In this document: in pieces, positions 4,108 through 61,524 of the stretch
How positions within the stretch are numbered: the first letter of the stretch is position 1
How the letters are laid out: every line of letters starts with the position of its first letter
Assembly: GCA_963718875.1 (NCBI GenBank)
Contig: OY970378.1
Location: 388,631-452,630, forward strand
Direction: 5' to 3'
From: Candidatus Parcubacteria bacterium
GTDB taxonomy: Bacteria; Patescibacteriota; Saccharimonadia; UBA4664; JBIOIQ01
DNA length: 64,000 bases
Notes under the pieces: model-generated
Told to the model about the DNA's origin: nothing
Database searches by the model: none
What the model saw: only the letters and a program-made list of their open reading frames with translations
Translations under genes and position numbers: made by a program

Positions 4108-4524
4108 ATGGAAAGAGTTGCAGATATTCATAAAGCTGGCGGCATCATTATACGTGATCGAAAGTTGTTAGTGGAGCGATCCATTGGAAAGCATTTTTTT
4201 ATTGCTCCTGGTGGGGCTATTGAGGCAGGCGAAACTTCCAAGCAAGCTTTGGTTCGTGAGCTTAAAGAAGAATTTTGTATAGATGTGAACGAAACAGATC
4301 TTGAAATTTTTGGCACATTTTATGCTCAAGCTGCTGGAGCAGAGGATAAAATCGTCAAGATGGATGTTTATATAGTAAGAAAGTGGCAAGGAGAACCTAG
4401 GGCTGATAGTGAGGTGGAAGAGATTCGATGGGTCGGTTCGCGTCCAGTTGAGGGGGTAAAAATAGGATCGATATTTGAGCACGATGTTTTGCCAAAACTA
4501 AAAGAGCTTGATCTAATAGATTAG
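4108..4524 (+). CDS. NUDIX hydrolase
   Basis: Nudix box GGAIEAGETSKQALVRELKEEFCI (Gx5Ex7REUxEExGU). Confidence 0.8.
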   Translation: MERVADIHKAGGIIIRDRKLLVERSIGKHFFIAPGGAIEAGETSKQALVRELKEEFCIDVNETDLEIFGTFYAQAAGAEDKIVKMDVYIVRKWQGEPRADSEVEEIRWVGSRPVEGVKIGSIFEHDVLPKLKELDLID

Positions 4525-8267: not shown

Positions 8268-9404
8268 TTGAAACAGCGGGCATATTTGGCGAGTCCATTC
8301 GGGTTTAGCGAAGGTGCCAAGTTATTTATGGAGCGAGTATATGTTCCGCGGTTGGCCGAGGTCGTTGATATTATTAATCCATGGCTTTTGACGAGTGATG
8401 CTGAGATTCATCAGTCTTTTCGTGATGGTAAGGTTGCAGAGTTTAGACATGAGATCGGCAAGCGAAACGCGGATGGAATACAGCGGGCTGATATTGTGAT
8501 TGCTGCTCTTGATGGGCAAGAGCTAGATAGCGGAACGGTGGCTGAGGTTGGGTATGCAGCTGGACTTGGTAAGCCGGTTTATGGTTATCGTAACGACATA
8601 CGTCAAGCAGGCGAGTTACAAGCGACGTTTAACCTGCAGGTGGAATATTTTATTCATTCATCTGGAGGTGTTATTGTTCAAAGTCTAGATGAGTTAGTGG
8701 CAGTAATGGCTAATTTAGATTCGTCTTTGCAAAATTCAGTTGCGCGGGGGCTGAGATCAGATCATGAAATAGAATCGACTGACTCAGACTTGAACGTTTC
8801 AGATAGTTTGCCAGGTTTAGCTGATTTTTTGTTTGAGGTTGGTATTTTAGCAAAGACACCCAGAAGTTTTACCTTTTTGCTAGGTAGCGGTCAGCAATCC
8901 GTGGCCGAACACATAAACAGAATGTCCTACGTGGGCTTAGTATTAGCAACTATGAATGGTGAGGCCGATGTGGGTAAGGTGATTGAAATGTGTTTGCTGC
9001 ATGATTTAGCAGAGGCGCGTACAAGTGACTTAAATTATGTCTACCAAAAGTACGTGGAATCAAATGAGGAGAAAGTTATAAGTGAGATTGCTGATTCTGT
9101 TAGCTTCGGTAAACGCATGCTGGCCGTTCTAAGGGAGTACAAGCAACGCGAAACCATTGAAGCAAAGCTTGCTAAAGACGCGGACAACATTGAGTTTATT
9201 CTCTCGCTCAAAGAACAGATCGACACCGGCAACACACGCGCCGAAACTTGGATGCCGCCGGCTTTGAAGCGTTTAAAAACGTCGGAAGGGCAAAGACTCG
9301 CTGAGGTTATTGTTAAGACAAGTTCGGATGACTGGTGGTTTGGGAATAAGGATGATGATTGGTGGATCAACCGGAAAGGGATGGATCATACAAAAAGATT
9401 CTAG
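8268..9404 (+). CDS. fusion protein: N-terminal nucleoside 2-deoxyribosyltransferase/Rcl-like domain plus C-terminal YfbR-like HD-domain 5'-deoxynucleotidase
   Basis: The N-terminal roughly 160 aa resemble the PF05014-type fold (ASPFGFSEG, VIAALDG, GTVAEVGYAAGLGKPV). The C-terminus has HD motifs (SVAEHINRMS, LLHDLAEARTSD). TTG start with an AAGGGG Shine-Dalgarno. Confidence 0.6.
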   Translation: MKQRAYLASPFGFSEGAKLFMERVYVPRLAEVVDIINPWLLTSDAEIHQSFRDGKVAEFRHEIGKRNADGIQRADIVIAALDGQELDSGTVAEVGYAAGLGKPVYGYRNDIRQAGELQATFNLQVEYFIHSSGGVIVQSLDELVAVMANLDSSLQNSVARGLRSDHEIESTDSDLNVSDSLPGLADFLFEVGILAKTPRSFTFLLGSGQQSVAEHINRMSYVGLVLATMNGEADVGKVIEMCLLHDLAEARTSDLNYVYQKYVESNEEKVISEIADSVSFGKRMLAVLREYKQRETIEAKLAKDADNIEFILSLKEQIDTGNTRAETWMPPALKRLKTSEGQRLAEVIVKTSSDDWWFGNKDDDWWINRKGMDHTKRF

Positions 9405-21238: not shown

Positions 21239-24200
21239 ATGGTTGCAGTAGTCCTAGTTATTTTAATATTGGCTATAGGTTTTGCGTGCGTTGCCTATGT
21301 GCTTTATCGGCGAACTTTACGCAGGGCAAAAAACATTGAGCGTGGCCTCAAAATGGTGCCTTTATTGATCCATTTGCCGCCTAGAAGTGCTGACACTGAG
21401 GCTGGTTCGCGGGACGTGCGTGAAGTGATGCGGGAAAAGGTGGCGCAAGCCGAGGTTTTGTATAATCTTATATCTGGTACAGCCACAACTGGATTTAAAA
21501 GCCGATTTTATGGTCAACGCCACGTTGCATTGGAAATTATAGCGACTGACGGAATGGTACATTTTTACGCGGCTGTACCGATAGCGTTGGTGCCGGTCAT
21601 CACTAACGCTATTCAAACTGCCTATGCAGGGGCAAAAATTGAAGAGGCCGAAGACCATAACATCTTTAACCCACACGGAAAGTTATCAAGTACTGCTGGC
21701 GGTGAACTGGTACTTAAGGCTAAGGCTGCCTACCCAATTGCAACAATTGAAAAACTGGAGCGGGATCCCATAGAAGCTCTTATAAATGCCTTGAGTAACT
21801 TAAAGCCTGGTGAAGGTGTCGGTATTCAGATTATGCTTCGCCCAGCCGCTAAGGGGTGGGAGAAAAAAAGCCTAGAGCTGGTTAAAAAAATGCGACATCA
21901 TGCTGGGGCGAAAGCTTCTTCTACCTATAGTACCCGTGATGTTTTAATGGCGGCGGTTAAAGCTCCTGAAGAGCGCCGCCAAGAAGTTGCAGCTAATTCT
22001 CCGCAAGCTCTATATATGAGCGACTTAGAACAGTCGGTCGTAAAAGCTATCGAAGAAAAAACTACTTTGGCTGCTTATGAAAGTTTGGTAAGAGTGTTGG
22101 TTTCGGCTAATAGCGCCCAAGAAGCGCAAAATTTACTACGTGAGGTAAGCTCTAGCTTCTCATTGCTGGATGCCCCTGGGCTTAACGGCTTTAAGTTTTT
22201 GCCTGCGAATGACATTGCCGGCTTGGTAACGGCTTTTATATTGCGTTTTTTCCCTCCAGAACTAAATCACACCATACTTAATAGTAAGGAACTGGCAACT
22301 TTGTTCCATTTGCCCGACGCCCAGTTTACGGCAAATTCGGAAGTTGAGCGACTGGCGAGCAAAGAGGTGGACGGACCGCCAGCTATTCCCTCCACTGGCC
22401 TATTGATGGGATATAACATTTTTCGAGGGACTAAAAAAGAAATTCATCTTTCGCCTGAGGACCGTCGCAGGCATACCTACATTGTAGGACAAACCGGTAC
22501 AGGTAAAAGTACTATCTTACAGAATTTGGCGGTTCAAGACATGCTGGCAGGCAATGGCTTTGCTTTTATTGACCCTCATGGTGATGAGGCAGAAAAAATG
22601 CTTTCAATGGTGCCCAAAAACCGCTCTGAAGATGTAATTTATTTTAATCCAGGGGATACCGATCATCCGTTAGGACTGAATTTATTTGAGTTTAGTGACC
22701 CGGCGCAGAAAGATTTTTTGATTCAAGAAACTATTAATATGCTTTATAAGCTGTACGATCCGAATGGAACGGGTGTTATTGGTCCTCGGTTTGAACAATG
22801 GTTTCGTAATGCCGCCCTTACACTGATGAGTGATCCAAATGGGGCTACTTTTATTGAAATTCCAAAAGTCTTTACTGATAACGATTATCTCAAGCAAAAG
22901 TTCAAATACATTCAAGACCCAACAGTTATGGAGTTTTGGACTAAAGAAATGGGCCAAACCAGCGACTACCATAAAAGTGAAATGTTGGGTTATTTTGTAA
23001 GTAAGTTTGGTGCGTTTCAGCAAAATGAAATTATGCGTAATATTATTGGCCAAACCAAAAGCGCATTTAACCTGCGTGACATTATGGATAACAAAAAAAT
23101 CCTAATTGTAAACTTGAGTAAGGGTAAATTGGGCGAGCTTAACTCGAGGTTGTTAGGTATGATGTTTGTAATTAAATTCCAGGCGGCGGCTATGAGTCGT
23201 GCAAATGTCCCTGAGGCTGACAGACCGGATTTTTGCTTATATGTAGACGAGTTCCAAAATTTTTCAACCGATTCATTTGCTTCAATTTTGAGTGAAGCTC
23301 GTAAATATCATTTGAACTTGATTGTGGCGAACCAGTTTATAGGGCAGCTCAGTGATGAAATTCGGGACGCAGTGTTTGGCAACGTTGGGACTATTATGAG
23401 CTACCGAACTGGCCCGGAAGATGCGGAGTTTTTAGTTAAGCAGTTTGCTCCTATTTTTGATGCTCACGATATGGTCAATATACCCAACCACAATGCCGTT
23501 ATCCGACTGATGATTAGCGGGTTACCTTCACAGCCCTTTAGCATAACAGCTTTACCGCCGCTGGGAGTCGAAAATCCAGAGCTGGGCGAAGCCATGAAAC
23601 AGTTGTCGAGGGCTAAGTTTGGTTCAAGTCGAGCGCAGGTGGAACAGGAGATATTTGCGCGATTGAGTAGTAAGCCAGTGCAATCTCCAATTGCGAGCCA
23701 AACACCTGTAGCTGGGTTAAATTCAGGCGTACCACAGCCAACTTCTATGCCTAATCCACAATCGCCAATGTCGGCACTGCCTGGTCCCAATAGAGCTTTG
23801 CCTGGGGCTGCAGTTGGTGGTATTAATCCTACGGTAGCACCGGTTTTGTCTGGCAGCTCTTCGTCTCCAGTACCTTCTACGTCTACAGCGATGCCTGCAC
23901 AACCAAGAGTAGCTTCCGCTTCGGTCTTAAAACCGCTGGATAGCCAGCCTATAGTAGACACCCAGGCTCCTGGAGCAAATCCCAATAATGTTGCCACAAC
24001 TAACCCTACAGCTATAAGTCTGTTAACTCCAGCTTCGGTAGTAGGCGCGCCGCCTGCATCTTTGGTTTCTGTGGCGCCACCTAACGATAAAATAGATAAA
24101 AGCCAAGCTCAGGGGCAACCTCCTTCAAGTCAGGTAGCTCCGGTAGTTTCGCTGCACCATGATGCCGTTCCGCCAGCGCCGGCATCTATTCCGGCAAGTC

Positions 24201-25726
24201 CCAGCACCTTAAACACAGGTTACAGTTTTCAAAAGTCTGCTAGCCCGGTCGCTCAGCCAAACCAGCCCTTACCTTCTCCAGATGTTTCTACATCTGCACC
24301 TAATCAATTTGAAAAACCACAGTTGGTTCCTATCCCAATAGCTCGCGCTCAGTCCGAAAAAACAATCGCGCCTAGATTAGACCCTGTACAGGATATTCCT
24401 GGCGAAGGTAGTTTAAATGAGTCAGTCATTAAGCCGCCAACTCCAGTATTGAATTCGGCTCTTACGCCCGCCCGAGAAGTTCAATCACTGCCTTTTAATG
24501 CCACTACTGCTGATGCGGCAATCCCAGTTCGTCCAGCTGTTGTAGCTGCTCCTGCGACACATTCGAGTATGGCTAACCAACCAATTTCGCATTTGGCTAC
24601 CACACCCACACCCACACCCACACCCACACCCACACCCACACCCACACCCACACCCACACCCACACCCACACCCACACCCACACCCACACCCACACCCACA
24701 CCCACACCCACACCCACACCCACACCCACACCCACACCCACACCCACACCCACACCCACACCCACACCCACACCCACACCCACTATTGATAAACCGAAAA
24801 ATGAGCCAGCTTTAGATTTAGAAAAATATCAAATTACAATTGCACCTGCTTTTCAGCAGTTGAGAGATAAACCTTTTGAGGCGCAAAATTCGGGGGCAAT
24901 GATTGCTTCTGAGTTATCATCAAATCCGATGTCGATGCCTTTGCCAGTAGCCGATAAACCTCAGTTTCATGGGGAGCAAGTTGTGGCGGAAAAGCCGCAA
25001 GATAAGATTATAGATTCTGTAGCGTCTCAAAGCAGCCATGACGATGTAAATAATGTTTTTGCTGCTCAAACTTCTTTAGAAAAGTCAGATCAGATGGGCT
25101 CAGCGATAGCCGAACCTGGTCCAGGCCAGGAAGCTCTTATTCCGCCGCCGCAATCCAGTGAAAAAAAATCAACTTTGTCCGAGTCTGATACTGTTGATCA
25201 CCACGAATCTGTGATCAAACACGATCCCAAAGGACGGTTGATTGTTACGCCTAGGCCCGCAGTAGAATGGTTGCCTGAGGAGAAAACCGATAGCCTTCCG
25301 CCGCCCGCTAAGGAGCCATACAAACCGGCATTGGAGGCTTTGGCAGCTTTGGACAAACAAAAGGCTTTAGAGGCAGCGGCAGCCAAGGCTAGAGCCGATG
25401 CGGAAGTTAAATTAGAAGCCGAGGTCAAGCGACCCACGACTATTAAAGCAAATCTTAAAAAAGTTAAAGCTGAAGCTAAGCCTATGGGTAAGGCTATTGA
25501 CTCAGCTAAGGCAGAAAAAATTATTAAGCCTATCCGTTCAGGTGCTACGCGTCACAATCCACCAACTCCCACAATTATTCTACCCAGTAAAAATCCAGAT
25601 ACAGTAACGCCCCAGGTTGGGTTGTCAACTGTAAATCAGCCACCTACTCCAGTAATAGAAAAACCATCGGTATTGGCTCCAGGAGAAATATATGTGGACG
25701 AAAAGGGCAACGTAGTTACGGGCTAA
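21239..25726 (+). CDS. large membrane-anchored P-loop ATPase of the TraD/TraG/VirD4 (type IV coupling protein-like) family with a roughly 750-aa disordered Pro/Ser/Thr/Ala-rich C-terminal tail
   Basis: N-terminal TM helix. Walker A YIVGQTGTGKST, FIDPHGD (the DPKGD-like motif of coupling proteins), Walker B LYVDEFQNF, and NLIVANQ. The tail contains (TP)n and a Lys/Ala-rich segment. Confidence 0.65.
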   Translation: MVAVVLVILILAIGFACVAYVLYRRTLRRAKNIERGLKMVPLLIHLPPRSADTEAGSRDVREVMREKVAQAEVLYNLISGTATTGFKSRFYGQRHVALEIIATDGMVHFYAAVPIALVPVITNAIQTAYAGAKIEEAEDHNIFNPHGKLSSTAGGELVLKAKAAYPIATIEKLERDPIEALINALSNLKPGEGVGIQIMLRPAAKGWEKKSLELVKKMRHHAGAKASSTYSTRDVLMAAVKAPEERRQEVAANSPQALYMSDLEQSVVKAIEEKTTLAAYESLVRVLVSANSAQEAQNLLREVSSSFSLLDAPGLNGFKFLPANDIAGLVTAFILRFFPPELNHTILNSKELATLFHLPDAQFTANSEVERLASKEVDGPPAIPSTGLLMGYNIFRGTKKEIHLSPEDRRRHTYIVGQTGTGKSTILQNLAVQDMLAGNGFAFIDPHGDEAEKMLSMVPKNRSEDVIYFNPGDTDHPLGLNLFEFSDPAQKDFLIQETINMLYKLYDPNGTGVIGPRFEQWFRNAALTLMSDPNGATFIEIPKVFTDNDYLKQKFKYIQDPTVMEFWTKEMGQTSDYHKSEMLGYFVSKFGAFQQNEIMRNIIGQTKSAFNLRDIMDNKKILIVNLSKGKLGELNSRLLGMMFVIKFQAAAMSRANVPEADRPDFCLYVDEFQNFSTDSFASILSEARKYHLNLIVANQFIGQLSDEIRDAVFGNVGTIMSYRTGPEDAEFLVKQFAPIFDAHDMVNIPNHNAVIRLMISGLPSQPFSITALPPLGVENPELGEAMKQLSRAKFGSSRAQVEQEIFARLSSKPVQSPIASQTPVAGLNSGVPQPTSMPNPQSPMSALPGPNRALPGAAVGGINPTVAPVLSGSSSSPVPSTSTAMPAQPRVASASVLKPLDSQPIVDTQAPGANPNNVATTNPTAISLLTPASVVGAPPASLVSVAPPNDKIDKSQAQGQPPSSQVAPVVSLHHDAVPPAPASIPASPSTLNTGYSFQKSASPVAQPNQPLPSPDVSTSAPNQFEKPQLVPIPIARAQSEKTIAPRLDPVQDIPGEGSLNESVIKPPTPVLNSALTPAREVQSLPFNATTADAAIPVRPAVVAAPATHSSMANQPISHLATTPTPTPTPTPTPTPTPTPTPTPTPTPTPTPTPTPTPTPTPTPTPTPTPTPTPTPTPTPTPTIDKPKNEPALDLEKYQITIAPAFQQLRDKPFEAQNSGAMIASELSSNPMSMPLPVADKPQFHGEQVVAEKPQDKIIDSVASQSSHDDVNNVFAAQTSLEKSDQMGSAIAEPGPGQEALIPPPQSSEKKSTLSESDTVDHHESVIKHDPKGRLIVTPRPAVEWLPEEKTDSLPPPAKEPYKPALEALAALDKQKALEAAAAKARADAEVKLEAEVKRPTTIKANLKKVKAEAKPMGKAIDSAKAEKIIKPIRSGATRHNPPTPTIILPSKNPDTVTPQVGLSTVNQPPTPVIEKPSVLAPGEIYVDEKGNVVTG
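24599..24783 (+). repeat. perfect hexanucleotide microsatellite (CACACC)x30 inside the CDS, encoding (Thr-Pro)n
   Basis: Three consecutive 60-nt sequence lines are identical and consist solely of CACACC units; the repeat is in frame (2 codons per unit). Confidence 0.95.
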
Positions 25727-25791: not shown

Positions 25792-26337
25792 TTAGCGTTT
25801 AGGCTTAATAATTTTAGCTAATCCTTCGATAATAAGACCAAGGACTCCTCCGACTACTAGTGACAGAATAAATTCTGAGCCAGACAAGCTAAATCCGCCG
25901 ACTCTAGCTGTTACGTATAAAAATCCACCTAGTAGTGCGGCGGTGGTGGTGGCTCCGAGCAAAACCGAGGGTCTTGCAACCGTAGCACCGGCTATCTCGC
26001 TAGTTTTTTCGACGGTCGGACTATGAATTACTTTACTAAACTGGCGACTGGCTGGCGATAGGTGTCGCTGAAGGCTTCGAAGCGTATCAACGTATGCTAC
26101 TTCTTTGTCTAGACGCGTAGGTTTGTTGGTGACTATAGTGTCTTTTTCAGCCGCTGATGCCTGTGGTTCCGGTTGTTGTTCTAGTTTTAAACGGGCTGCT
26201 TCCAGTTGCTCGAACCGTTCATTTCGGCCTTCTTCTAGTTGTTCTGGGCTAAGCTCGCGACGTTCAGGCCCCTGAAGCTGTTCGTTGCCTTCAGGAGTTT
26301 TAGCTAATTCTGGGTTTTTAGATTCGTATTCTGGCAT
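25792..26337 (-). CDS. hypothetical membrane protein (acidic N-terminal region, two C-terminal TM helices)
   Basis: ORF immediately downstream of the LPXTG protein gene on the same strand; charged coiled-coil-like N-terminus, hydrophobic C-terminus. Confidence 0.4.
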   Translation of the reverse strand: MPEYESKNPELAKTPEGNEQLQGPERRELSPEQLEEGRNERFEQLEAARLKLEQQPEPQASAAEKDTIVTNKPTRLDKEVAYVDTLRSLQRHLSPASRQFSKVIHSPTVEKTSEIAGATVARPSVLLGATTTAALLGGFLYVTARVGGFSLSGSEFILSLVVGGVLGLIIEGLAKIIKPKR

Positions 26338-26345
26338 TGGTACCT

Positions 26346-28151
26346 TTATATCCCTGGGTTATGTTCAACTCGAAGAATCTTAACCTCTTTGCTTAATTGA
26401 CGGTTTCGTAAGTAAAAGTAAACGATGAGGCTAAATGAGGCTAACATTATTGTAGCACTGGTAGTGGCTCCGGTCTCAGGTAAAGTTTGGGCGGCTGCCT
26501 CAAGTTGTTTTATAGGCGGTGCGGCCACTGGGATAATAACTGTATTTCCGTAAACATTATTCATTTGTAAATCAAACGAAAAAATATCGGATGTTGATCG
26601 AGCTGTGGTTGGAACTGGATTTTTAATTTTAATTTGAAATACATTCGTAGTGCCGCTGCCGGGTGAGATGTTAACGGCAGGCCAGACTAGGGTTCGATTA
26701 ACCATGGTTGCACCACCTAGGTTAACGACTTCGGCGTATTCTAATATATCGGTGATGTTCTCACTAAGTTGGTAGGCATTTTGAATCCCTGCGCCGCTAT
26801 TGGTGGTTCTAAGGGTGTATTCGATAATGTCTCCAGCGCCGGCTTTAATATTGGGGTTGTTGGCATCAAGCATGTTTCCGTCTTTCCCGTCGCGTTGGAT
26901 GTAGGCAGCGGATTTAAATTGGTTAATATGAGGAAGTTGAGGGGTTGTAGCGGGAGTCGGAGTAGGAACGGGGACTGGAGTTGGTACCGGCACAGGAGTA
27001 GGTACGGGCGTAGGGACTGGTACGGGGGTAGGTACAGGAACTGGTGTAGGTACAGGAGTAGGCACTGGTGTTGGTGCAGTTGGGGTGACTGGTGAAGGAT
27101 TAGGCAGTATGGCCACACCGCATTTGAATTGTCCTGAGGTCGAGCCGTTTGAATAGGCAGTAATCTCAGGGTTGTTGGCGTCACCGTCTATTCCGCCACC
27201 GTTGCCTGCAGTGTCAACGCCTCTGGCATAGATGTAGAACCGATGGGTTTTGCCGTCACGGTATTTTGCCGGAATCTGCCAACTAAAGCCGTGATTGCCG
27301 GATATACCAAAGGTTTTATTAACATCTGGTCTTGATATGTTGGTAGCTCCATAGTCGTATGCATCGGTTGTTGGTATTTGACGCGAAGCTGAAGCTGGGG
27401 AGTCTACATATATATGAATACCAATGGCAGTAGTAGGGCTGTCGGAGTCGTAGGCCCATCCGGGGACGTTAAAACAATCCCAGGGATCAATGGTTCCTAA
27501 TGGTATTTTTTGAGATGGTGGAGGGGGTGGTGGAGGAGGGGAGGTTTGTGTGGGCAGGTTTTCAACAGCAATATTGCCACATGACATTAGTATGGCAAAA
27601 TAAGTTCCTTGGCTATTACGTCCTTCAATAACTCGAGCGTTGGTAGTTACTGCTACCGATCCGAGAGTACGGGCGTAGTAGGTATAGCTACCGACGTTAA
27701 TTACTTGGTCGGTTGAATCATACCGTTCGCGACCGATGGAAATTAGGCTGCTACCTTGGGCGGGAATATATTTTGGCTCGCTAGCATTACGAATGTCGTC
27801 ATCAGAGATGTGGTAATAATCGCGGTAAAGCGCTCGAAGCTCGGCACTGCCGTTGATGCTTTGGATGAGGTCGTCTTTGTCGCTAATGCCTCCTTGAATA
27901 ATGTCATTTGGTGATGAGTTATTAGCGCCTACTGGAGGCACAGAAATGGCGAAAAATTGCATTAGGATGGCAAAAATACCAGTAATTAATGACAATCGCC
28001 TTGTAAGGTTCTCGCGACGCAAGCGCTTTGCGTAAAACGCCAGTTGACTAGTAATCTGAGGGCTGAAATTTAAATTTGAAACTAACTTTTTGAACATTTG
28101 TCTTTCAATCTTCTTATGTTTAATTAAAGCACAGGTGTACCCAATGTGCAA
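26346..28151 (-). CDS. sortase-anchored (LPXTG) cell-surface protein with poly-Pro and (PTPV)n linkers
   Basis: N-terminal signal/TM segment. The C-terminus has LPETG followed by a hydrophobic stretch and RNRQ (a canonical cell-wall sorting signal). Internal PPPPPPPP and a PTPVPTPVPV repeat are present. The start may be the second ATG at 28097. Confidence 0.75.
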   Translation of the reverse strand: MHIGYTCALIKHKKIERQMFKKLVSNLNFSPQITSQLAFYAKRLRRENLTRRLSLITGIFAILMQFFAISVPPVGANNSSPNDIIQGGISDKDDLIQSINGSAELRALYRDYYHISDDDIRNASEPKYIPAQGSSLISIGRERYDSTDQVINVGSYTYYARTLGSVAVTTNARVIEGRNSQGTYFAILMSCGNIAVENLPTQTSPPPPPPPPSQKIPLGTIDPWDCFNVPGWAYDSDSPTTAIGIHIYVDSPASASRQIPTTDAYDYGATNISRPDVNKTFGISGNHGFSWQIPAKYRDGKTHRFYIYARGVDTAGNGGGIDGDANNPEITAYSNGSTSGQFKCGVAILPNPSPVTPTAPTPVPTPVPTPVPVPTPVPVPTPVPTPVPVPTPVPVPTPTPATTPQLPHINQFKSAAYIQRDGKDGNMLDANNPNIKAGAGDIIEYTLRTTNSGAGIQNAYQLSENITDILEYAEVVNLGGATMVNRTLVWPAVNISPGSGTTNVFQIKIKNPVPTTARSTSDIFSFDLQMNNVYGNTVIIPVAAPPIKQLEAAAQTLPETGATTSATIMLASFSLIVYFYLRNRQLSKEVKILRVEHNPGI

Positions 28152-28196: not shown

Positions 28197-30695
28197 TCAG
28201 AGATCTTTTAGGAGCTTTTGGACGGCTCGCGTAATTTCAGGGATTGATAAATCGGGGTCGATTTTGGCAGCGGGACCGATTTTAATCGTGACTTTTCCAA
28301 AGTGAGGAAGCTGGTGTTTGTCTCCTGCCATGATTTTTTCTAGCCCCATATGTTTAATTGGCACTACGGGTACTTGTAGTTCTTTAACCATCCAGCCAAT
28401 TCCGTTTTTGAAAGACTGCAATTGGCCGCTAGGTGAATGTTCGCCTTCGGGGAAAAACAAGACGTTCCAACCGGAATCTAGTAATTCGCCGGTGTATTCC
28501 AAGCTGCGCTTAAAGCCTGTTTGCTTGGGGAGTGGGTAAGAATTAACCATTAATGCAGTGTAGTAGTCGTAAAGGCGCCATAATAAATGGTTTAGGGATT
28601 GGCTTTTAAATAATGGGTCTCCGGCATTTAAGAAATATTCTTTCCAGGTTGCCACAGCTATATTTTGCCTGACATTCCAAGGTAAAGACATAAGAACGTT
28701 GGGAGCGTCAAAGTAGCCGATGTGATTGGATATAAAAATGACTGGTTGGTCGAGATTATTTAGATTGTGACGCCCGATAACCTGGCGGCGGCAAAATAAT
28801 CGGATGACGTTATCGGCTATTATCAAATTAAAGCTGGCTCTGATAATTTTAGGCACAGGACTAAGTAGCCAGCGTCGAAATGTAGTGGAGTCTTTCCCGG
28901 TTTGACGGTTTTTGATAAGTGCTTCCAGTTCCGAAACAGTAGTATTGGCCTTTATATCTTCTTCGACTAAGTCGATATTGAACTCTTGCTCCAAGGCGGT
29001 TATAAGCTCAACTCGACCGACGGACGTCAGATTAAGATCCAAAGCTAATCTTGCTTGTGGTCGGATCAAGTGGGGTTGAGTTTGGCAGACCTGAGATATT
29101 AGGTGGTAAAGTTTTGTTTGTGGGTTGAGTGGGGGTGTGGCAGAAGCGTTAGGACTATCGGTGAGTTTTTCAATTACCAGGGGCTTTTTGATCTTCATTG
29201 TGGTAGTGCGCGGAAAGTCGTCTTGGTGCCAGATTCCGGAAGAGGTAATGCGCTGATTTTCGTTCAACTGCAAATTGGTGGAATCGATGATTTGTTTTAG
29301 GTTGGCCTGGTTATTGCTGAGTATTACTTCTGCGTGAATTTGCTCGCCTTGCTTGCTAGGAAGGGCAACGACGCATATGGCTTTCACCCCCGGCTGCTTG
29401 CTTAAGATAGCTTCGATGTCTTCAGGGTAAATATTTAAGCCCGCACTGGTGACGATAACGTCTTTTTTACGTCCTTTGAGATAAACATAGCCATTACTAT
29501 CAACCCCGCCAATGTCACCAGTTTTCATCCAGCCGTCTTCAAACAGGGTCGTGGTTTTGTCGGAGTCTAGGTAGTAACCCGAAGTAATGTTGCCCCCACG
29601 AGCGTAGATTTCTCCATCTGGCCCAAACTTTAGCTCTACTCCAGGTAGAGCTTTGCCGACTGATCCAGTTACGACTGTGTCTAGCGGGTTGGCGGTAAGG
29701 ACAGGAGCAGATTCGGTAAGGCCATAGCCCTGGATTACGCGAAAGCCTAGGTTATGCCAAAATGACTCCAGATCGTCACCTAGTGGTGCCCCGCCGCAGA
29801 TAAAATATTCAAAATGAGTGCCGAAACGTTGCCAGACTTTTCGAAATAAGATTTTTTTGCCCCATGCGGGTGCTTTGATTTGAGCTAAACGATTAAAGAT
29901 TTTGGTTTTGCCGTGTTTTTCGACTTCACGGGTGATGCCATCTGCAAGTAGTTGAAGCAAGCGAGGCACTATTACAATATTGGTGACATGCTCTTCTGCT
30001 AGGGTTTTAAAAATTAGCTTAGGGCGTAGGCCTTTCATATATATAATGGTGCAGCCTGCGCTTAGGGGTGTCAGGAAGCCGGGGTTTTGTTCGAATAAAT
30101 GACTAAGAGGAAGCAGGGATAGAAAGGTTTGGTCGGGGCGTACCTGAATGGTTTGTTTGATGGCTTGGATGTTGGCGATAAGGTTGCCGTGGGTTAGTAG
30201 GACTCCTTTGGGGTCGCCAGTTGTACCCGAAGTGTAGACGATTTCGAGCAAGTCGGAGCTGGCGATGGTTGGGTTGTTGGCTAGAGCGGGATCCAGGTCT
30301 TGAATTTGACTTAACAGTCTATCTAAAACCAGGGTTTTGACATCTATTTTGGAGGGAAGTTTATATTCGGAGTGGATTAACAACTTAGAATTAACTAGTT
30401 TTTGAATTTTGGCGACGTATTCGGCCGTAGCCAGGTAATCGATCGGGACTATAACAATTCCAGAACGGGCAGCAGCTAAAAAAATTATTCCCCAGTTCGG
30501 GCTATTAAAGCCCCATAAGATAAGTTGGTCTCCTTGCTTAAGTCCCAGTTGGTCGAGAAGGACGCAGGCTTGCAGGATCTGGTGGTGTAGTTCTAGGTAG
30601 GTGGTGCTGAAAGTACGAAACCCAGTTTTATATCTCAGGGCAGGCTTGTCTCCCTGGCTAGGGAAGGAACTGATAATGTCGCCAATTGTTTTCAC
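28197..30695 (-). CDS. tri-domain fusion: acyl-AMP ligase (acyl-ACP/CoA synthetase) - acyl carrier protein domain - 1-acyl-sn-glycerol-3-phosphate (lysophospholipid) acyltransferase
   Basis: AMP-binding motifs (YTSGTTGDPKGV, GYGLTE, KKDVIV). The central carrier-like segment (LDLNLTSVGRVELITALEQEFNIDL) has a candidate phosphopantetheine Ser. C-terminal PlsC motifs are present (NHIGYFD, FPEGEHS). It resembles a rearranged Aas-type enzyme. Confidence 0.7.
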   Translation of the reverse strand: MKTIGDIISSFPSQGDKPALRYKTGFRTFSTTYLELHHQILQACVLLDQLGLKQGDQLILWGFNSPNWGIIFLAAARSGIVIVPIDYLATAEYVAKIQKLVNSKLLIHSEYKLPSKIDVKTLVLDRLLSQIQDLDPALANNPTIASSDLLEIVYTSGTTGDPKGVLLTHGNLIANIQAIKQTIQVRPDQTFLSLLPLSHLFEQNPGFLTPLSAGCTIIYMKGLRPKLIFKTLAEEHVTNIVIVPRLLQLLADGITREVEKHGKTKIFNRLAQIKAPAWGKKILFRKVWQRFGTHFEYFICGGAPLGDDLESFWHNLGFRVIQGYGLTESAPVLTANPLDTVVTGSVGKALPGVELKFGPDGEIYARGGNITSGYYLDSDKTTTLFEDGWMKTGDIGGVDSNGYVYLKGRKKDVIVTSAGLNIYPEDIEAILSKQPGVKAICVVALPSKQGEQIHAEVILSNNQANLKQIIDSTNLQLNENQRITSSGIWHQDDFPRTTTMKIKKPLVIEKLTDSPNASATPPLNPQTKLYHLISQVCQTQPHLIRPQARLALDLNLTSVGRVELITALEQEFNIDLVEEDIKANTTVSELEALIKNRQTGKDSTTFRRWLLSPVPKIIRASFNLIIADNVIRLFCRRQVIGRHNLNNLDQPVIFISNHIGYFDAPNVLMSLPWNVRQNIAVATWKEYFLNAGDPLFKSQSLNHLLWRLYDYYTALMVNSYPLPKQTGFKRSLEYTGELLDSGWNVLFFPEGEHSPSGQLQSFKNGIGWMVKELQVPVVPIKHMGLEKIMAGDKHQLPHFGKVTIKIGPAAKIDPDLSIPEITRAVQKLLKDL

Positions 30696-31018
30696 TTTTC
30701 TAGCACCACCGTTGCAATAGCGTAGTCACCATCATGGCTAATTGAAACGTTGTGTGAGAGGTAGTGGTCGAAAGTGGGGGAGAGTGCAATCTGGGGTTTG
30801 CCGTTTTGGTCGTAGGTTATGGCGATGTCGCGAAACTTTGGGATTATACCAACAGCTTTGAAGAAAGCTTCTTTGGCGGCAATGATCCCCGCAATGTGTT
30901 CAGGTTTGTGTCCTGGTAGTTCGCTTTCTTGAAAGAACTTTGCCAAGGTTTCAGGTTGATCAATCAACTTGGTGATGTTGGGAATATATACGATGTCTGT
31001 TCCGCAATGTATACTCAA
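30692..31018 (-). CDS. acpS: holo-[acyl-carrier-protein] synthase (4'-phosphopantetheinyl transferase)
   Basis: Roughly 108 aa with GTDIVYI at the N-terminus, KEAFFKA and SISHDGDYA motifs; its stop overlaps the start of the downstream fusion gene by 4 nt. Confidence 0.75.
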   Translation of the reverse strand: MSIHCGTDIVYIPNITKLIDQPETLAKFFQESELPGHKPEHIAGIIAAKEAFFKAVGIIPKFRDIAITYDQNGKPQIALSPTFDHYLSHNVSISHDGDYAIATVVLEK

Positions 31019-31236
31019 AAACCCACACTCCTTTGATACTTTGACTATAACATGAGTTTAAGGAATTGGGTGAAAGCTCTGCCTGGGGATTCAAGAGAAC
31101 CTCCAGGCAGAGCGAGACTATTCGCCCGACTCTGGGTCGGGGAAGTAGAAGGTGCCGTCGTCGTTCATGGCGGGCATGCCAGAGTAGAGAAGCATGTGTC
31201 CAGCGCGCATGGATCGATGAGCCATGCGCACGCGTG

Positions 31237-31644
31237 AAAAAGATCGAACCTTCAGATAAGATCTTTTTAGACCAGTCGACTATACCTGGTGCCGGGAGAG
31301 GGGTTTTTGCAAAACGAGCTCTTACTAAAGGGGAAGTCATCGAAGTATGTCCGGTTATCGAGATTCCGCTGACCGACTCATCGAACGACGATCAAAATGG
31401 ATCGTTAACTAACTACTTCTTTTACTTTGGGAATGGGCTTGCAGTGGTTCTTGGTTTCGGATCAATCTATAACAATTCTTACACTCCTAACGCAACCTAT
31501 ATCAAAAAGCCATCTGATGGCGTGGTAGAATTCCAGGCTACAGAAGATATTGAGGCCGGTATAAATATAATTGTAAATTACAACAACGGGGATCCTGATG
31601 ATAAATCGACATCTATGAATAAAGGTGTTCTCCTCGTAAGCTGA
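31237..31644 (+). CDS. bacterial SET-domain protein (putative lysine methyltransferase)
   Basis: GAGRGVFAKRALTKGEVIEVCPV (the SET N-terminal GxG motif), NNSYTPNA (the NHSxxPN equivalent) and a C-terminal ...INIIVNYNNG. The start is uncertain: the ORF is open from 31066 (TTG) through a GC-rich Arg-rich stretch, and a GTG at 31237 is given here. Confidence 0.5.
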   Translation, partial: KKIEPSDKIFLDQSTIPGAGRGVFAKRALTKGEVIEVCPVIEIPLTDSSNDDQNGSLTNYFFYFGNGLAVVLGFGSIYNNSYTPNATYIKKPSDGVVEFQATEDIEAGINIIVNYNNGDPDDKSTSMNKGVLLVS

Positions 31645-42112: not shown

Positions 42113-42562
42113 ATGCCTAATATCATAGTGTCAATGAAGACAATGCTTTTAAAAAATGGTAAGTTTCTAGTATTAAAACAAACTCGACCAACACTTTTCT
42201 ATTGGGATCTTCCTGGAGGAAAGTTGGAGTATGGTGAAACCCCTGAGACAGCGCTAAAACGTGAAGTAAAAGAAGAGACCGGTATAGATATTGAACCTGG
42301 TAAATATATTGGATTATGGTGGTTTTTTAGCCCAACTAATAAACATCAGCTAATTTGTCCGACGTTTTTAAGCACGATCTCAGAAGACTCAGTTGACACT
42401 GTGAATATTGAGAATAACCCAGCAGAGGAGCACATTAAAGACTACGCTTGGGTGGAGAAAGATAAATTTCTTAAAGGGGATTACCCTGTTTTGAATGAGA
42501 GCTTGAAAGACCTTATTAATGATCTTAATATTAAAGTCCTCAAAGATTTAAATAACGTCTAA
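42113..42562 (+). CDS. NUDIX hydrolase
   Basis: Nudix box GGKLEYGETPETALKREVKEETGI. Confidence 0.75.
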   Translation: MPNIIVSMKTMLLKNGKFLVLKQTRPTLFYWDLPGGKLEYGETPETALKREVKEETGIDIEPGKYIGLWWFFSPTNKHQLICPTFLSTISEDSVDTVNIENNPAEEHIKDYAWVEKDKFLKGDYPVLNESLKDLINDLNIKVLKDLNNV

Positions 42563-42628: not shown

Positions 42629-43471
42629 GTGTATTACAATCCTTACATATTAATACCTTTTGCAACTTGGGCGATTGCTCAGGCAATCAAGTTTGCGCTA
42701 GCCGCATGGCGAGGCAATTTGGACTTTAAATACTTATACGCTTCGGGTGGTATGCCCAGTGTCCATTCGGCTGTGGTTTGCTCACTGGCGACCACCTCTT
42801 TATTGATAGACGGGCCAGAAAGCCATTTATTCGGCTTCATCTTGCTGTTTGCTGCAATCGTTATGTACGACTCTTTTGGTGTCCGCCGAAGTACTGGTGA
42901 ACAAGCGGTTGCTATAAATGTAATCTTATCAAGTCTTGAGCACGACCGGATTAAAATGGATATGCCTCAGCATAAGTTGAGGGAAGTTTTGGGTCACAAG
43001 CCAGCCGAAGTAGCGATAGGGGCGTTATTGGGTATTGCACTAGGAGGACTCTTTAACTTTTCTCGTCTTGGCACTCAGTACAACTATATTAGTAGTACAC
43101 CGGGCAAAATTGAAATGCTGGCTTATGCGGTGTTGTTTGCAACGATGTTGGTGGTAGGTGTAGTCATAAGATTGGTTTTTAGCAGACGTTATCGTAAATC
43201 CACGGTTATGAAGCGTTTGGGTAGACAGATAGTGTTGCTGTCACAGACGGTTGGATGGCTGGGTTTAGTCGCGGCATTTGGGCAGTACCAACGCTTACCT
43301 TATTTAGCTGGGCGCGGATGGTCCTGGGTAATGGCGGCTGTTTTAGTTATTTGGGCTGTTTACCTAGTGGCTAAGTTCAGCTCGATTGTACCAGCAGAGC
43401 TTGCATTAGAATTAGAGCAGCAGCGCAAAAAAAAATGGCTGACTAAAAAGCCGAAGAAAAGACGAAAATAA
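42629..43471 (+). CDS. DUF212 / divergent PAP2-superfamily membrane protein with an extra C-terminal membrane domain
   Basis: Signature YASGGMPSVHSA and the overall TM layout of the acid-phosphatase/vanadium-haloperoxidase-related family. Confidence 0.55.
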   Translation: MYYNPYILIPFATWAIAQAIKFALAAWRGNLDFKYLYASGGMPSVHSAVVCSLATTSLLIDGPESHLFGFILLFAAIVMYDSFGVRRSTGEQAVAINVILSSLEHDRIKMDMPQHKLREVLGHKPAEVAIGALLGIALGGLFNFSRLGTQYNYISSTPGKIEMLAYAVLFATMLVVGVVIRLVFSRRYRKSTVMKRLGRQIVLLSQTVGWLGLVAAFGQYQRLPYLAGRGWSWVMAAVLVIWAVYLVAKFSSIVPAELALELEQQRKKKWLTKKPKKRRK

Positions 43472-46776: not shown

Positions 46777-48326
<1,550 letters not shown>

Positions 48327-51700: not shown

Positions 51701-51776
51701 TGGTGGAGCATGTCGGGATCGAACCGACCACCTCCTGCTTGCAAAGCAGGCGCTCTACCGAATGAGCTAATGCCCC
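51701..51776 (-). tRNA. tRNA-Ala (anticodon TGC)
   Basis: Reverse complement GGGGCATTAGCTCATTCGGTAGAGCGCCTGCTTTGCAAGCAGGAGGTGGTCGGTTCGATCCCGACATGCTCCACCA; G3-U70 pair, anticodon loop CTTTGCAAG. Confidence 0.9.
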
Positions 51777-51861
51777 TCCAGCTCGTGCCTAATATATGAA
51801 TGAGCTTAGTGTGCAAAGGGCTCCAAGCTTCAATACTATGTTGCTTGATGTTTGACTTGCT

Positions 51862-51938
51862 TGGTGGGCGCACAGGGACTCGAACCCCGGACCTCGTCAT
51901 TATCAGTGACGCGCTCTAACCAGCTGAGCTATGCGCCC
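51862..51938 (-). tRNA. tRNA-Ile (anticodon GAT)
   Basis: Reverse complement GGGCGCATAGCTCAGCTGGTTAGAGCGCGTCACTGATAATGACGAGGTCCGGGGTTCGAGTCCCTGTGCGCCCACCA; anticodon loop CTGATAA. Confidence 0.9.
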
Positions 51939-57222: not shown

Positions 57223-57767
57223 AAGCAGGTTCCTGCGGTCCCTTTGTTTTTGGTACCGCAGGAACCATCGGTTTTGTTCAAAATGGGTCTTGACCCTAGA
57301 ATCACTCCTGTGATAAACTTTTGAAAGGTCAAATTGGAGTTCACGTATGAGTAGACAACTAACCAGTCGTAACGGAGAGCACATTCTCTAGCGTAAGTAA
57401 GTTGCCTTTTTTAATGTGAGCTCCGCGCCAATACCGCGGAGTTTTTGAATCTTAACAAACAACGGCCCTTTCATTTGGTGCATTTCGTCGTCAGATCCTC
57501 CGTTCCGCATTCGACGTAGGTCAAACTACGCCTCATTTGCGGTACTCGGCTATTCCTAGAACTACACTCAACTGAAAGTCCCTACCGTTTATAAGTAAAT
57601 TTTAAGATTAGCGCTTGATTAAACCAAAAGCGTTAATCTGGGTAAACTGTTGTACCGTACTGGTATAACAGTAAAATGACAATTTCAACCGATCCGCCGA
57701 CAAAGCGGATCAACAAATGTGTATTAGCAATTTGTCTTTACAAATTGCTAGTCAAATTCTTGTAAGA

Positions 57768-61143
<3,376 letters not shown>

Positions 61144-61408
61144 TTTTTTTACAACACTTTCTATTGTCATATTGGATGAAAGTTCAAGATGATAGTGAAA
61201 GTGCCGATTTGACTAGCAATTTGTGACGACAACGTCATTTACAACCCAAATTAAAATTTACGATAAGTTTCATTTCACAAAGTTTTTCGAAGTATCATTT
61301 AGGACTACAGCAATAGTTGGCGTTCGAAAATGGAAAGTGAAAATTGTATAAATGAGATTGACTGGGCAAAAGCCCCAGTCTCTATGGGAGAAATTATTCG
61401 CCCAGTGA

Positions 61409-61518
61409 GGCCGGTGCTTTTGGCGAGGAGGATACACCGGTTCCCATCCCGAACACCGAAGTTAAGCTCCTCAGCGGCGATGATACTGCATATAGCGGGA
61501 AAGTAGCACGGTGCCGGA
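61409..61518 (+). rRNA. rrf: 5S ribosomal RNA
   Basis: CCGGTTCCCATCCCGAACACCGAAGTTAAGC core and a pairing 5'/3' helix I; about 110 nt, 265 nt downstream of the 23S. Confidence 0.85.
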
Positions 61519-61524
61519 TTAATC

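Follow-up and report, generated by a model that had tools for sequence, protein, structure and literature searches.

In Escherichia coli, Aas consists of an acyltransferase (residues 1-203) followed by a synthetase (204-719) and uses holo-acyl carrier protein (holo-ACP) in trans (PMC11416262). ElbD of Myxococcus xanthus, a protein of ether-lipid biosynthesis, has the order FAR-ACS-ACP-AGPAT; the activities of its ACS and ACP parts were shown in vitro, and other phyla are noted to contain 'ElbD-like homologues' that lack the FAR domain (PMC9131029). A recent survey mentions fusions of FAALs with 'LPAT_AGPAT_like' domains (PMC12820801). The present analysis concerns a related arrangement in a Candidatus Parcubacteria bacterium (contig OY970378.1 of assembly GCA_963718875.1, positions 388,631 to 452,630 of the forward strand; this whole stretch of 64,000 nucleotides is referred to as the window). 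It encodes a holo-ACP synthase, AcpS, directly followed by a gene for a tri-domain protein in which an adenylation domain, an ACP domain and an acyltransferase (AT) domain are joined in a single polypeptide. The two genes probably constitute a self-contained module for the activation and transfer of acyl groups.

The first-pass annotation, made from the letters of this DNA, had described a tri-domain fusion with acpS immediately upstream. Both open reading frames (ORFs) and their four-nucleotide overlap lie where it placed them (Table 1), and a Pfam scan of the larger product finds AMP-binding, PP-binding and Acyltransferase domains in that order. The domain and motif matches are far beyond chance. 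At the junction (GAA AAG TGA) the start codon of the tri-domain gene lies inside as GTGA, and translation of this gene is probably coupled to that of acpS. The overlap is also the basis on which the two genes are presumed to be co-transcribed; a scan for promoters and terminators returned counts equal to those of shuffled controls. Gene calling done independently on a Logan contig from a second assembly yields the same gene pair, which stands there beside gyrB and a SET-domain gene. The AlphaFold2 model of the whole protein has a mean predicted local distance difference test score (pLDDT) of 85.5 and a predicted template-modeling score (pTM) of 0.81, and a separate model of residues 515-832 has a pLDDT of 83.5. 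Conservation was read from an alignment of 46 full-length homologs with 37-60% identity to the window protein. Identity to the Geobacter homolog is similar in all three modules (43.5% for the adenylation, 35.1% for the carrier and 35.7% for the acyltransferase module), which indicates that the fusion is old and that all three of its parts are under selection.

The middle module had been proposed to be a carrier with its serine in an LTSVG motif, and a PP-binding fold and a conserved serine in that motif are both found. More specifically, Pfam PP-binding (PF00550) matches residues 529-594 with 30.1 bits (cutoff 20.8) and TIGR00517 acyl_carrier matches the domain at 3.2e-9. Ser558 is invariant in 46 of 46 homologs, and a carrier serine motif occurs in 86 of the 90 full-length proteins that represent 50%-identity clusters. 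In the AlphaFold2 model this residue occupies the canonical position at the N-terminus of a helix (558-572). Foldseek comparison of the module, taken from the model of residues 515-832, with ACPs of type-II fatty acid synthesis (FAS) gave TM scores of 0.83-0.85 and root-mean-square deviations (rmsd) of 1.7-2.0 Å, including those to Aquifex 2ehs (0.85 and 1.9 Å) and E. coli butyryl-ACP 1l0i (0.84 and 1.7 Å), and the module belongs to the PP-binding/ACP family. As modeled, the carrier is closest to a FAS-type ACP and not to a peptidyl carrier protein (PCP), and type-II FAS ACPs are the class primed by AcpS-type enzymes.

The upstream product is an AcpS by its single ACPS domain, its Mg-binding Asp and Glu/Lys and its scores: it matches Pfam ACPS (PF01648) with 33.2 bits (cutoff 25) and TIGR00556 with 65.7 bits (cutoff 45.35), and reaches 56.1 bits with the TIGR00516 acpS equivalog, marginally under the cutoff of 59.8. 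The GxDI Asp, the AAKEA Glu/Lys and the SISH motif align with those of the AcpS proteins of five linked loci and of Bacillus subtilis AcpS.

Ten loci were examined for their gene order (the window, L002-L007 and L010-L012). In eight of them acpS directly precedes the tri-domain gene, and in a ninth, L006, a transporter gene of the major facilitator superfamily (MFS) stands between the two (acpS-MFS-tri-domain); the sole locus with no acpS in either position is that of Geobacter. The coupling to acpS that the first-pass annotation had pointed out is therefore retained in nine of ten loci, and the same four-nucleotide overlap recurs in L002, L003, L007, L010 and L012. Because the surrounding genes otherwise differ, those on archaeal contigs included, the pair of acpS and tri-domain gene behaves as a unit, and the linkage supports the role of AcpS as a dedicated priming partner of the fusion protein.

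The adenylation domain matches Pfam AMP-binding over residues 14-375 (4.6e-67), and AMP-binding_C over residues 427-470 weakly and below cutoff. It carries a P-loop (TSGTTGDPKG, 155-164), GYGLTE (323-328), TGD (392-394), GRKKD (408-412) and a catalytic lysine (Lys501), and T155-G164, E328, D394, R409/K411 and K501 are invariant or at least 90% conserved among the 46 homologs. Motifs A3, A5, A7, A8 and A10 together with the fold place it among the long-chain fatty-acid-adenylating enzymes (FadD/Aas-like) of the ANL superfamily. Foldseek searches of the PDB with residues 1-~510 return this fold at 1e-40, with TM scores of up to 0.84 relative to the target. The lowest rmsd values (~4 Å) are those to structures in the thioester conformation, namely 4CL with AMP and CoA, the MenE ternary complex and the acyl-ACP synthetase-ACP complex 8i8d, and it is this thioester-forming conformation that the model adopts. 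Foldseek alignments of 650-677 columns, covering residues 1-~600, extend into the carrier of A-PCP di-domains (McyG, EntE-EntB).

By sequence the adenylation domain appears closest to long-chain acyl-CoA ligases and not to FAALs. NCBIfam PRK06187 matches it at 2.4e-76, its best PDB sequence match is Mycobacterium tuberculosis FadD13 (3r44, 4.5e-45) compared with 7e-22 for the FAAL 3pbk, and the A5-to-A7 spacing of 69 aa gives no obvious sign of a FAAL insertion, as judged from motif spacing. The earlier label 'acyl-AMP ligase' is thus a loose one. That the nearest characterized adenylation domains are CoA ligases, and that the family goes under 'AMP-binding protein' or 'long-chain acyl-CoA synthetase' in most databases, would both suit a plain long-chain acyl-CoA synthetase with a vestigial ACP and AT and an acpS gene that is adjacent by chance. 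This explanation is highly improbable given that Ser558, HX4D and PEG are invariant or at least 90% conserved over deep divergence, that the three domains diverge at equal rates, and that the acpS linkage in nine of ten loci extends across bacteria and archaea.

The C-terminal module matches Pfam Acyltransferase (PF01553) over residues 638-780 with 50.5 bits (cutoff 23; 2.3e-13). N657, H658 and D663 are invariant among the 46 homologs, and HX4D occurs in all 90 of the full-length cluster representatives; P749 and G751 are likewise invariant in the 46, with E750 at least 90% conserved, and the FPEG block aligns with FPEGTRS of the Thermotoga maritima PlsC 5kym. This PlsC is also the top Foldseek match of the module in the model of residues 515-832 (5.5e-10), followed by PatA, LpxM and GPAT1. 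HX4D, block III and the PlsC alpha/beta fold are all present, and the domain is a member of the PlsC/LPLAT family (PF01553). A hydropathy scan of the whole protein found no transmembrane segment, and residues 613-634 form a long helix ahead of the acyltransferase core; the protein is therefore expected to be peripheral, like PlsC and like Aas, which is a peripheral membrane enzyme.

Within this family the AT domain leans modestly toward the Aas type over the PlsC type, as judged by sequence scores. Compared alone with NCBIfam, it scores best against the AT portion of the LplT-Aas fusion model (2.3e-12), with the generic TIGR00530 AGP_acyltrn behind it (1.1e-8), and a profile of the family's AT region scores E. 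coli Aas at 39.7 bits and E. coli PlsC at 28.1 bits. The alignment of the window AT to that of Aas runs from end to end (residues 8-178; 22% identity over 202 aa, 1.6e-6), and the one to E. coli PlsC is confined to a local match of 37 residues (0.004).

Genes beside the cassette also bear on the acceptor. An alpha/beta-hydrolase (PGAP1/Abhydrolase/Hydrolase_4-like) is adjacent to the cassette in five of the ten loci, in three of them as an upstream family and in two as other hydrolases (Table 1), and it is possible that these enzymes act as lipase or lysophospholipase partners. A search of the window for a cassette-linked alpha/beta-hydrolase, PAP2, FMN_red or AcpP-like gene found none. Methyltransferases of the cyclopropane-fatty-acid-synthase type (PF02353) lie within a few kb of the cassette in three loci (L002:2309-3472, L011:10156-11310 and L012:3601-4221), as do PAP2 phosphatases in two (L002:12091-12765 and L005:13938-14672), and the recurrence of both hints at a wider lipid-remodeling neighborhood.

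These PAP2 genes would agree with a different assignment, in which the AT substitutes for PlsC or PlsB and acylates lyso-phosphatidic acid (LPA) and/or glycerol-3-phosphate (G3P), so that phosphatidic acid (PA) is made de novo from scavenged fatty acids, in place of a re-acylation of lysophospholipids that are imported or damaged. The LPA acyltransferase 5kym is both the top structural match and the only significant PDB sequence match of the AT, the TIGR00530 match points the same way, and annotators have named the Geobacter homolog an '[acyl-]glycerolphosphate acyltransferase'. However, the AT aligns end-to-end with Aas and only locally with E. coli PlsC, Aas-type models score higher, the lipase-like hydrolases and the MFS transporter beside the cassette fit a lysolipid cycle better, and no genes of a G3P or PA pathway were seen nearby. 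This assignment is accordingly regarded as unlikely, although it is the strongest of the alternatives.

Table 1. Positions of the acpS and tri-domain genes with their parts, of neighboring genes in homologous loci (positions prefixed with the locus) and of the ribosomal region of the window.
Feature	Position	Strand	Remarks and basis
Tri-domain gene (adenylation - ACP - acyltransferase)	28197..30695	-	832 aa + stop, GTG start
acpS: holo-ACP synthase, group I phosphopantetheinyl transferase	30692..31018	-	108 aa, TTG start; Pfam, TIGRFAM
GTGA overlap, acpS stop TGA / tri-domain GTG start	30692..30695	-	4 nt; read from sequence
AAGGAG Shine-Dalgarno, 9 nt 5' of acpS TTG	31028..31033	-	Read from sequence
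ANL-superfamily fatty-acid adenylation domain, residues 1-510	29166..30695	-	N- and C-terminal subdomains; Pfam, Foldseek, motifs
In-cis acyl carrier protein domain, residues 525-598	28902..29123	-	Pfam, TIGR00517, Foldseek
Ser558 codon (LTSVG), predicted 4'-phosphopantetheine site	29022..29024	-	Alignment, model
PlsC/LPLAT-type glycerolipid O-acyltransferase domain, residues 605-832	28200..28883	-	Pfam, Foldseek, BLASTP
HIGYFD = HX4D catalytic motif (His658, Asp663)	28707..28724	-	Alignment
FPEG (748-751), acyltransferase block III, acceptor-binding motif	28443..28454	-	Alignment
Upstream hydrolase family, 5' of acpS	L002:6998-7681; L003:6966-7649; L007:7003-7674		223-227 aa, 44-56% mutual identity
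Other hydrolases, 3' of tri-domain gene	L006:10444-11304; L011:6624-7397		
MFS transporter between acpS and tri-domain gene	L006:6785-7999		404 aa, tight four-gene cluster
rRNA/tRNA region	46777-48324; 51701-51938; 57764-61152; 61410-61519		16S = 46777-48324

Returning to the preferred enzymology, AcpS would move 4'-phosphopantetheine from CoA onto Ser558 of the embedded carrier. The N-terminal FadD/Aas-like domain would adenylate a free long-chain fatty acid with ATP and then thioesterify it to the in-cis holo-ACP arm, which would hand the acyl group to the C-terminal PlsC-type acyltransferase; there, on the cytoplasmic side of the membrane, the His658/Asp663 dyad would link it as an ester to a free hydroxyl group on a glycerolipid acceptor. 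A lysophospholipid, as for Aas, is the most likely acceptor, and within this scheme it is moderately favored over the other candidates, LPA or G3P. The net effect would be the incorporation of exogenous fatty acids, from a host or the community, into diacyl membrane lipids without a free pool of acyl-CoA or acyl-ACP, and the module would presumably serve lipid scavenging or remodeling.

Several observations weigh against this scheme. The acyltransferase activity of ElbD was not detected in vitro (PMC9131029). The preference for a lysophospholipid acceptor depends on weak score differences, and the best structural match is an LPA acyltransferase. The MFS transporter of L006 was considered as a candidate LplT and rejected, as it is of a generic MFS type, matches no LplT model and shows no similarity to E. 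coli LplT. In the window there is no lipase, transporter, pls or cds gene that would complete the pathway, and a standalone AcpP and FAS pathway beyond these 64 kb may give AcpS other clients. Finally, Geobacter homologs have no adjacent acpS and occur alongside the organism's own fatty acid synthesis, which indicates that the family is not intrinsically a scavenging device.

The taxonomic distribution of the family is broad. The best 120 database matches are all proteins of ~810-860 aa with the same architecture, and comprise Patescibacteria and Saccharimonadales metagenome-assembled genomes (MAGs) at 50-60% identity, MAGs labeled as DPANN archaea at 41-54%, and cultured Geobacter, Geomonas and Geotalea at ~39-41%. 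Geobacter is free-living and makes its own fatty acids. An exhaustive HMMER search with the ACP-AT half retrieved, among representatives of 50%-identity clusters, 208 at E<=1e-30 and 1063 at E<=1e-10, and among the best 150 matches 90 are at least 750 aa long and match in their C-terminal part. Word-based searching for homologs of the same half gave mostly fragments and was uninformative. The ligase-ACP-acyltransferase architecture is thus neither new nor rare, and it has been noticed before; a literature search found no paper that characterizes a reductase-less member of the family (from CPR bacteria, Geobacter or DPANN archaea) or discusses the family in the Candidate Phyla Radiation (CPR).

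The cassette occurs on two contigs labeled as Woesearchaeota (L010:4681-7478 and L006:6462-10442). The first also encodes two archaeal proteins, uS15 (198.8 bits, cutoff 154) and RecJ (416 bits, cutoff 360), and the second an archaeal-type GluRS (533 bits, cutoff 401.75). Since these markers score above curated cutoffs, both contigs are genuinely archaeal (DPANN). The tri-domain protein of L010 is 54% identical to that of the window, and sequence comparison suggests that the cassette of acpS and fusion gene has been transferred between CPR bacteria and DPANN archaea. Woesearchaeota MAGs were previously reported to contain fab genes of the bacterial type and cyclopropane-fatty-acid synthase genes likewise (PMC10936187).

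How CPR bacteria (Patescibacteria) obtain their membranes is an open question, for which the cassette offers a concrete candidate, amenable to experiment in E. coli, for the assembly of membrane lipids in CPR and DPANN symbionts. CPR cells contain ester lipids of fatty acids, with an enrichment of lysolipids, but known genes for their synthesis are lacking; lipid synthesis is absent in most CPR bacteria, and one survey identified among its CPR genomes no enzymes that produce or require ACP (PMC7242380); for a cultured CPR representative, the route of lipid acquisition 'remains unclear' (PMC12281837). In the window, 64 kb of 1.19 Mb, a Pfam survey detected no standalone ACP gene (acpP) and no gene of the fab (fabD/F/G/Z/I), acc, pls or cds type, and on the strength of the CPR literature (PMC7242380) the organism is expected to lack fatty acid synthesis. 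The first-pass annotation had linked the fusion to such a deficiency. Full-length homologs in Geobacter show that it is not specific to organisms without this pathway; a scavenging role fits CPR biology and is not intrinsic to the family, since Geobacter has it too.

The cassette would explain why a minimal genome keeps AcpS, and its presence on DPANN contigs bears on the exchange of lipids across the 'lipid divide'. A more far-reaching proposal joins these points: the cassette would be the sole ACP-dependent system in ultra-small symbionts without fatty acid synthesis and the missing enzyme that turns host fatty acids and lysolipids into diacyl lipids, it would have moved between CPR bacteria and DPANN archaea, and some DPANN archaea would handle bacterial-type ester lipids. 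In its entirety this proposal is tentative and rather doubtful.

Other genes surround the cassette in the window. On the same strand and 3' of the tri-domain gene, the ORFs 26346-28151 and 25792-26337 (-) follow at gaps of 45 and 8 nt; their products have no Pfam match, no terminator was found, and they may be co-transcribed with the cassette. The 601-aa protein 3' of the tri-domain gene has (PxP)n repeats and ends in a sortase-type anchor (LPETG, a hydrophobic stretch and RNRQ). Divergent from acpS, between it and gyrB, lies a gene for a SET-domain protein (31066-31644, +; PF00856, 2.7e-10), which is unusual in bacteria. The only other lipid-related match in the window is a DUF212 'divergent PAP2' protein of 280 aa (42629-43471, +; 1.5e-37) with an extra C-terminal membrane region.

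The window as a whole looks like that of a small-genome, CPR-type bacterium. Many of its proteins have no Pfam match, and those checked are all singletons at 90% identity. The rRNA genes are unlinked: 16S and 23S lie 9.4 kb apart, with protein genes and tRNA-Ala/tRNA-Ile between them, on the opposite strand. The 23S gene spans 3389 nt against a model of 2925 positions, which corresponds to an insertion of ~460 nt; no Pfam-recognizable ORF and no homing-endonuclease ORF was found in this insertion. The 16S gene matches universal primers and EUB338 exactly, and the classical TM7 type was rejected, as the TM7/Saccharibacteria-specific primer and probe signatures are absent from it. A 1495-aa protein (21239-25726) has a membrane anchor at its N-terminus, a core that resembles the P-loop ATPases VirD4/TrwB/HerA (weak Pfam matches) and a long, low-complexity, Pro/Thr-rich tail with a perfect (TP)n repeat at 24481-24783. 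A nucleotide-salvage-type cluster (4108-4524, 8268-9404, 10006-10557, 10566-11012 and 42113-42562) comprises three NUDIX hydrolases, a nucleoside 2-deoxyribosyltransferase-HD fusion and a second, weak deoxyribosyltransferase-like ORF, and these genes are consistent with a scavenging lifestyle.

Comparison with known systems begins with the Geobacter sulfurreducens homolog (WP_010942320.1 / AAR35055.1), an 824-aa protein of 39% identity over 100% coverage with the identical three domains and conserved motifs. It differs from the window locus in having no adjacent acpS, and a P-type ATPase gene lies downstream. It is annotated as 'Acyl-(acyl carrier protein) ligase, acyl carrier, [acyl-]glycerolphosphate acyltransferase fusion protein'. 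The distinctiveness that the first-pass annotation ascribed to the fusion was thus overstated, since full-length Geobacter homologs were already annotated as such and ElbD-like proteins have the same order of domains. Any advance would lie in a functional assignment and not in a new kind of system, as the family is widespread and its architecture had been noticed.

ElbD itself (UniProt Q1DC43), compared by its published domain order, has the same ACS-ACP-AGPAT-like succession in one polypeptide. In combination with the FAR-less homologues of other phyla (PMC9131029), and with the PlsC-fold neighbors PatA and LpxM, which acylate glycolipids, this order could suggest an enzyme for a specialized lipid, such as an ether-lipid precursor, a glycolipid or a lipid-anchored polymer, in place of a phospholipid scavenger. 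Yet ElbD has an additional N-terminal FAR1-like reductase and an elbA-E operon, whereas Pfam finds no reductase in the window protein, which is not a member of the ElbD type, and no elb-like neighbors (elbB/elbE-like genes included) occur in the ten loci. Among the best 150 matches of the ACP-AT half two are at least 900 aa long and none exceeds 939 aa, so that proteins of the ElbD type are not close relatives, and the cassette resides in minimal genomes, where a dedicated pathway for a specialized lipid is less likely. A role of this kind is therefore quite improbable.

Other known systems offer parallels to the preferred reading, acyl activation and transfer to a membrane glycerolipid. In A-PCP di-domains of the nonribosomal peptide synthetase (NRPS) and FAAL type the adenylation domain loads an in-cis carrier, as is proposed for the window protein; in contrast to these di-domains and to FAAL-LPLAT fusions, the window protein lacks condensation, thioesterase and reductase domains. 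The LplT-Aas fusions (PRK08633 / PRK06814, acyl-[ACP]--phospholipid O-acyltransferase) supply the best NCBIfam match to the window AT, and their synthetase part matches the window protein as well, but they are MFS-AT-synthetase proteins of ~1140 aa without a carrier, while the window protein has no MFS part and the reverse order. E. coli Aas (2-acyl-GPE acyltransferase / acyl-ACP synthetase), which is paired with the flippase LplT, shares both catalytic modules with the window protein, along with the chemistry proposed for it, in which a fatty acid and ATP give acyl-ACP and then an acylated lysophospholipid. BLASTP aligns the window adenylation domain with residues 259-657 of the K-12 sequence (25% identity, 2e-28), and with 17.8 bits against a cutoff of 886 for the Aas equivalog NF005959 the window protein is a homolog of Aas and not a member of that group. 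Unlike Aas, it has no lplT partner in the window. The earlier description of the protein as Aas chemistry in reversed order with an embedded carrier is nevertheless accurate, as both halves are homologous to Aas: where Aas borrows the AcpP of the cell, the window protein carries its own ACP between the two modules and is encoded together with a dedicated acpS.

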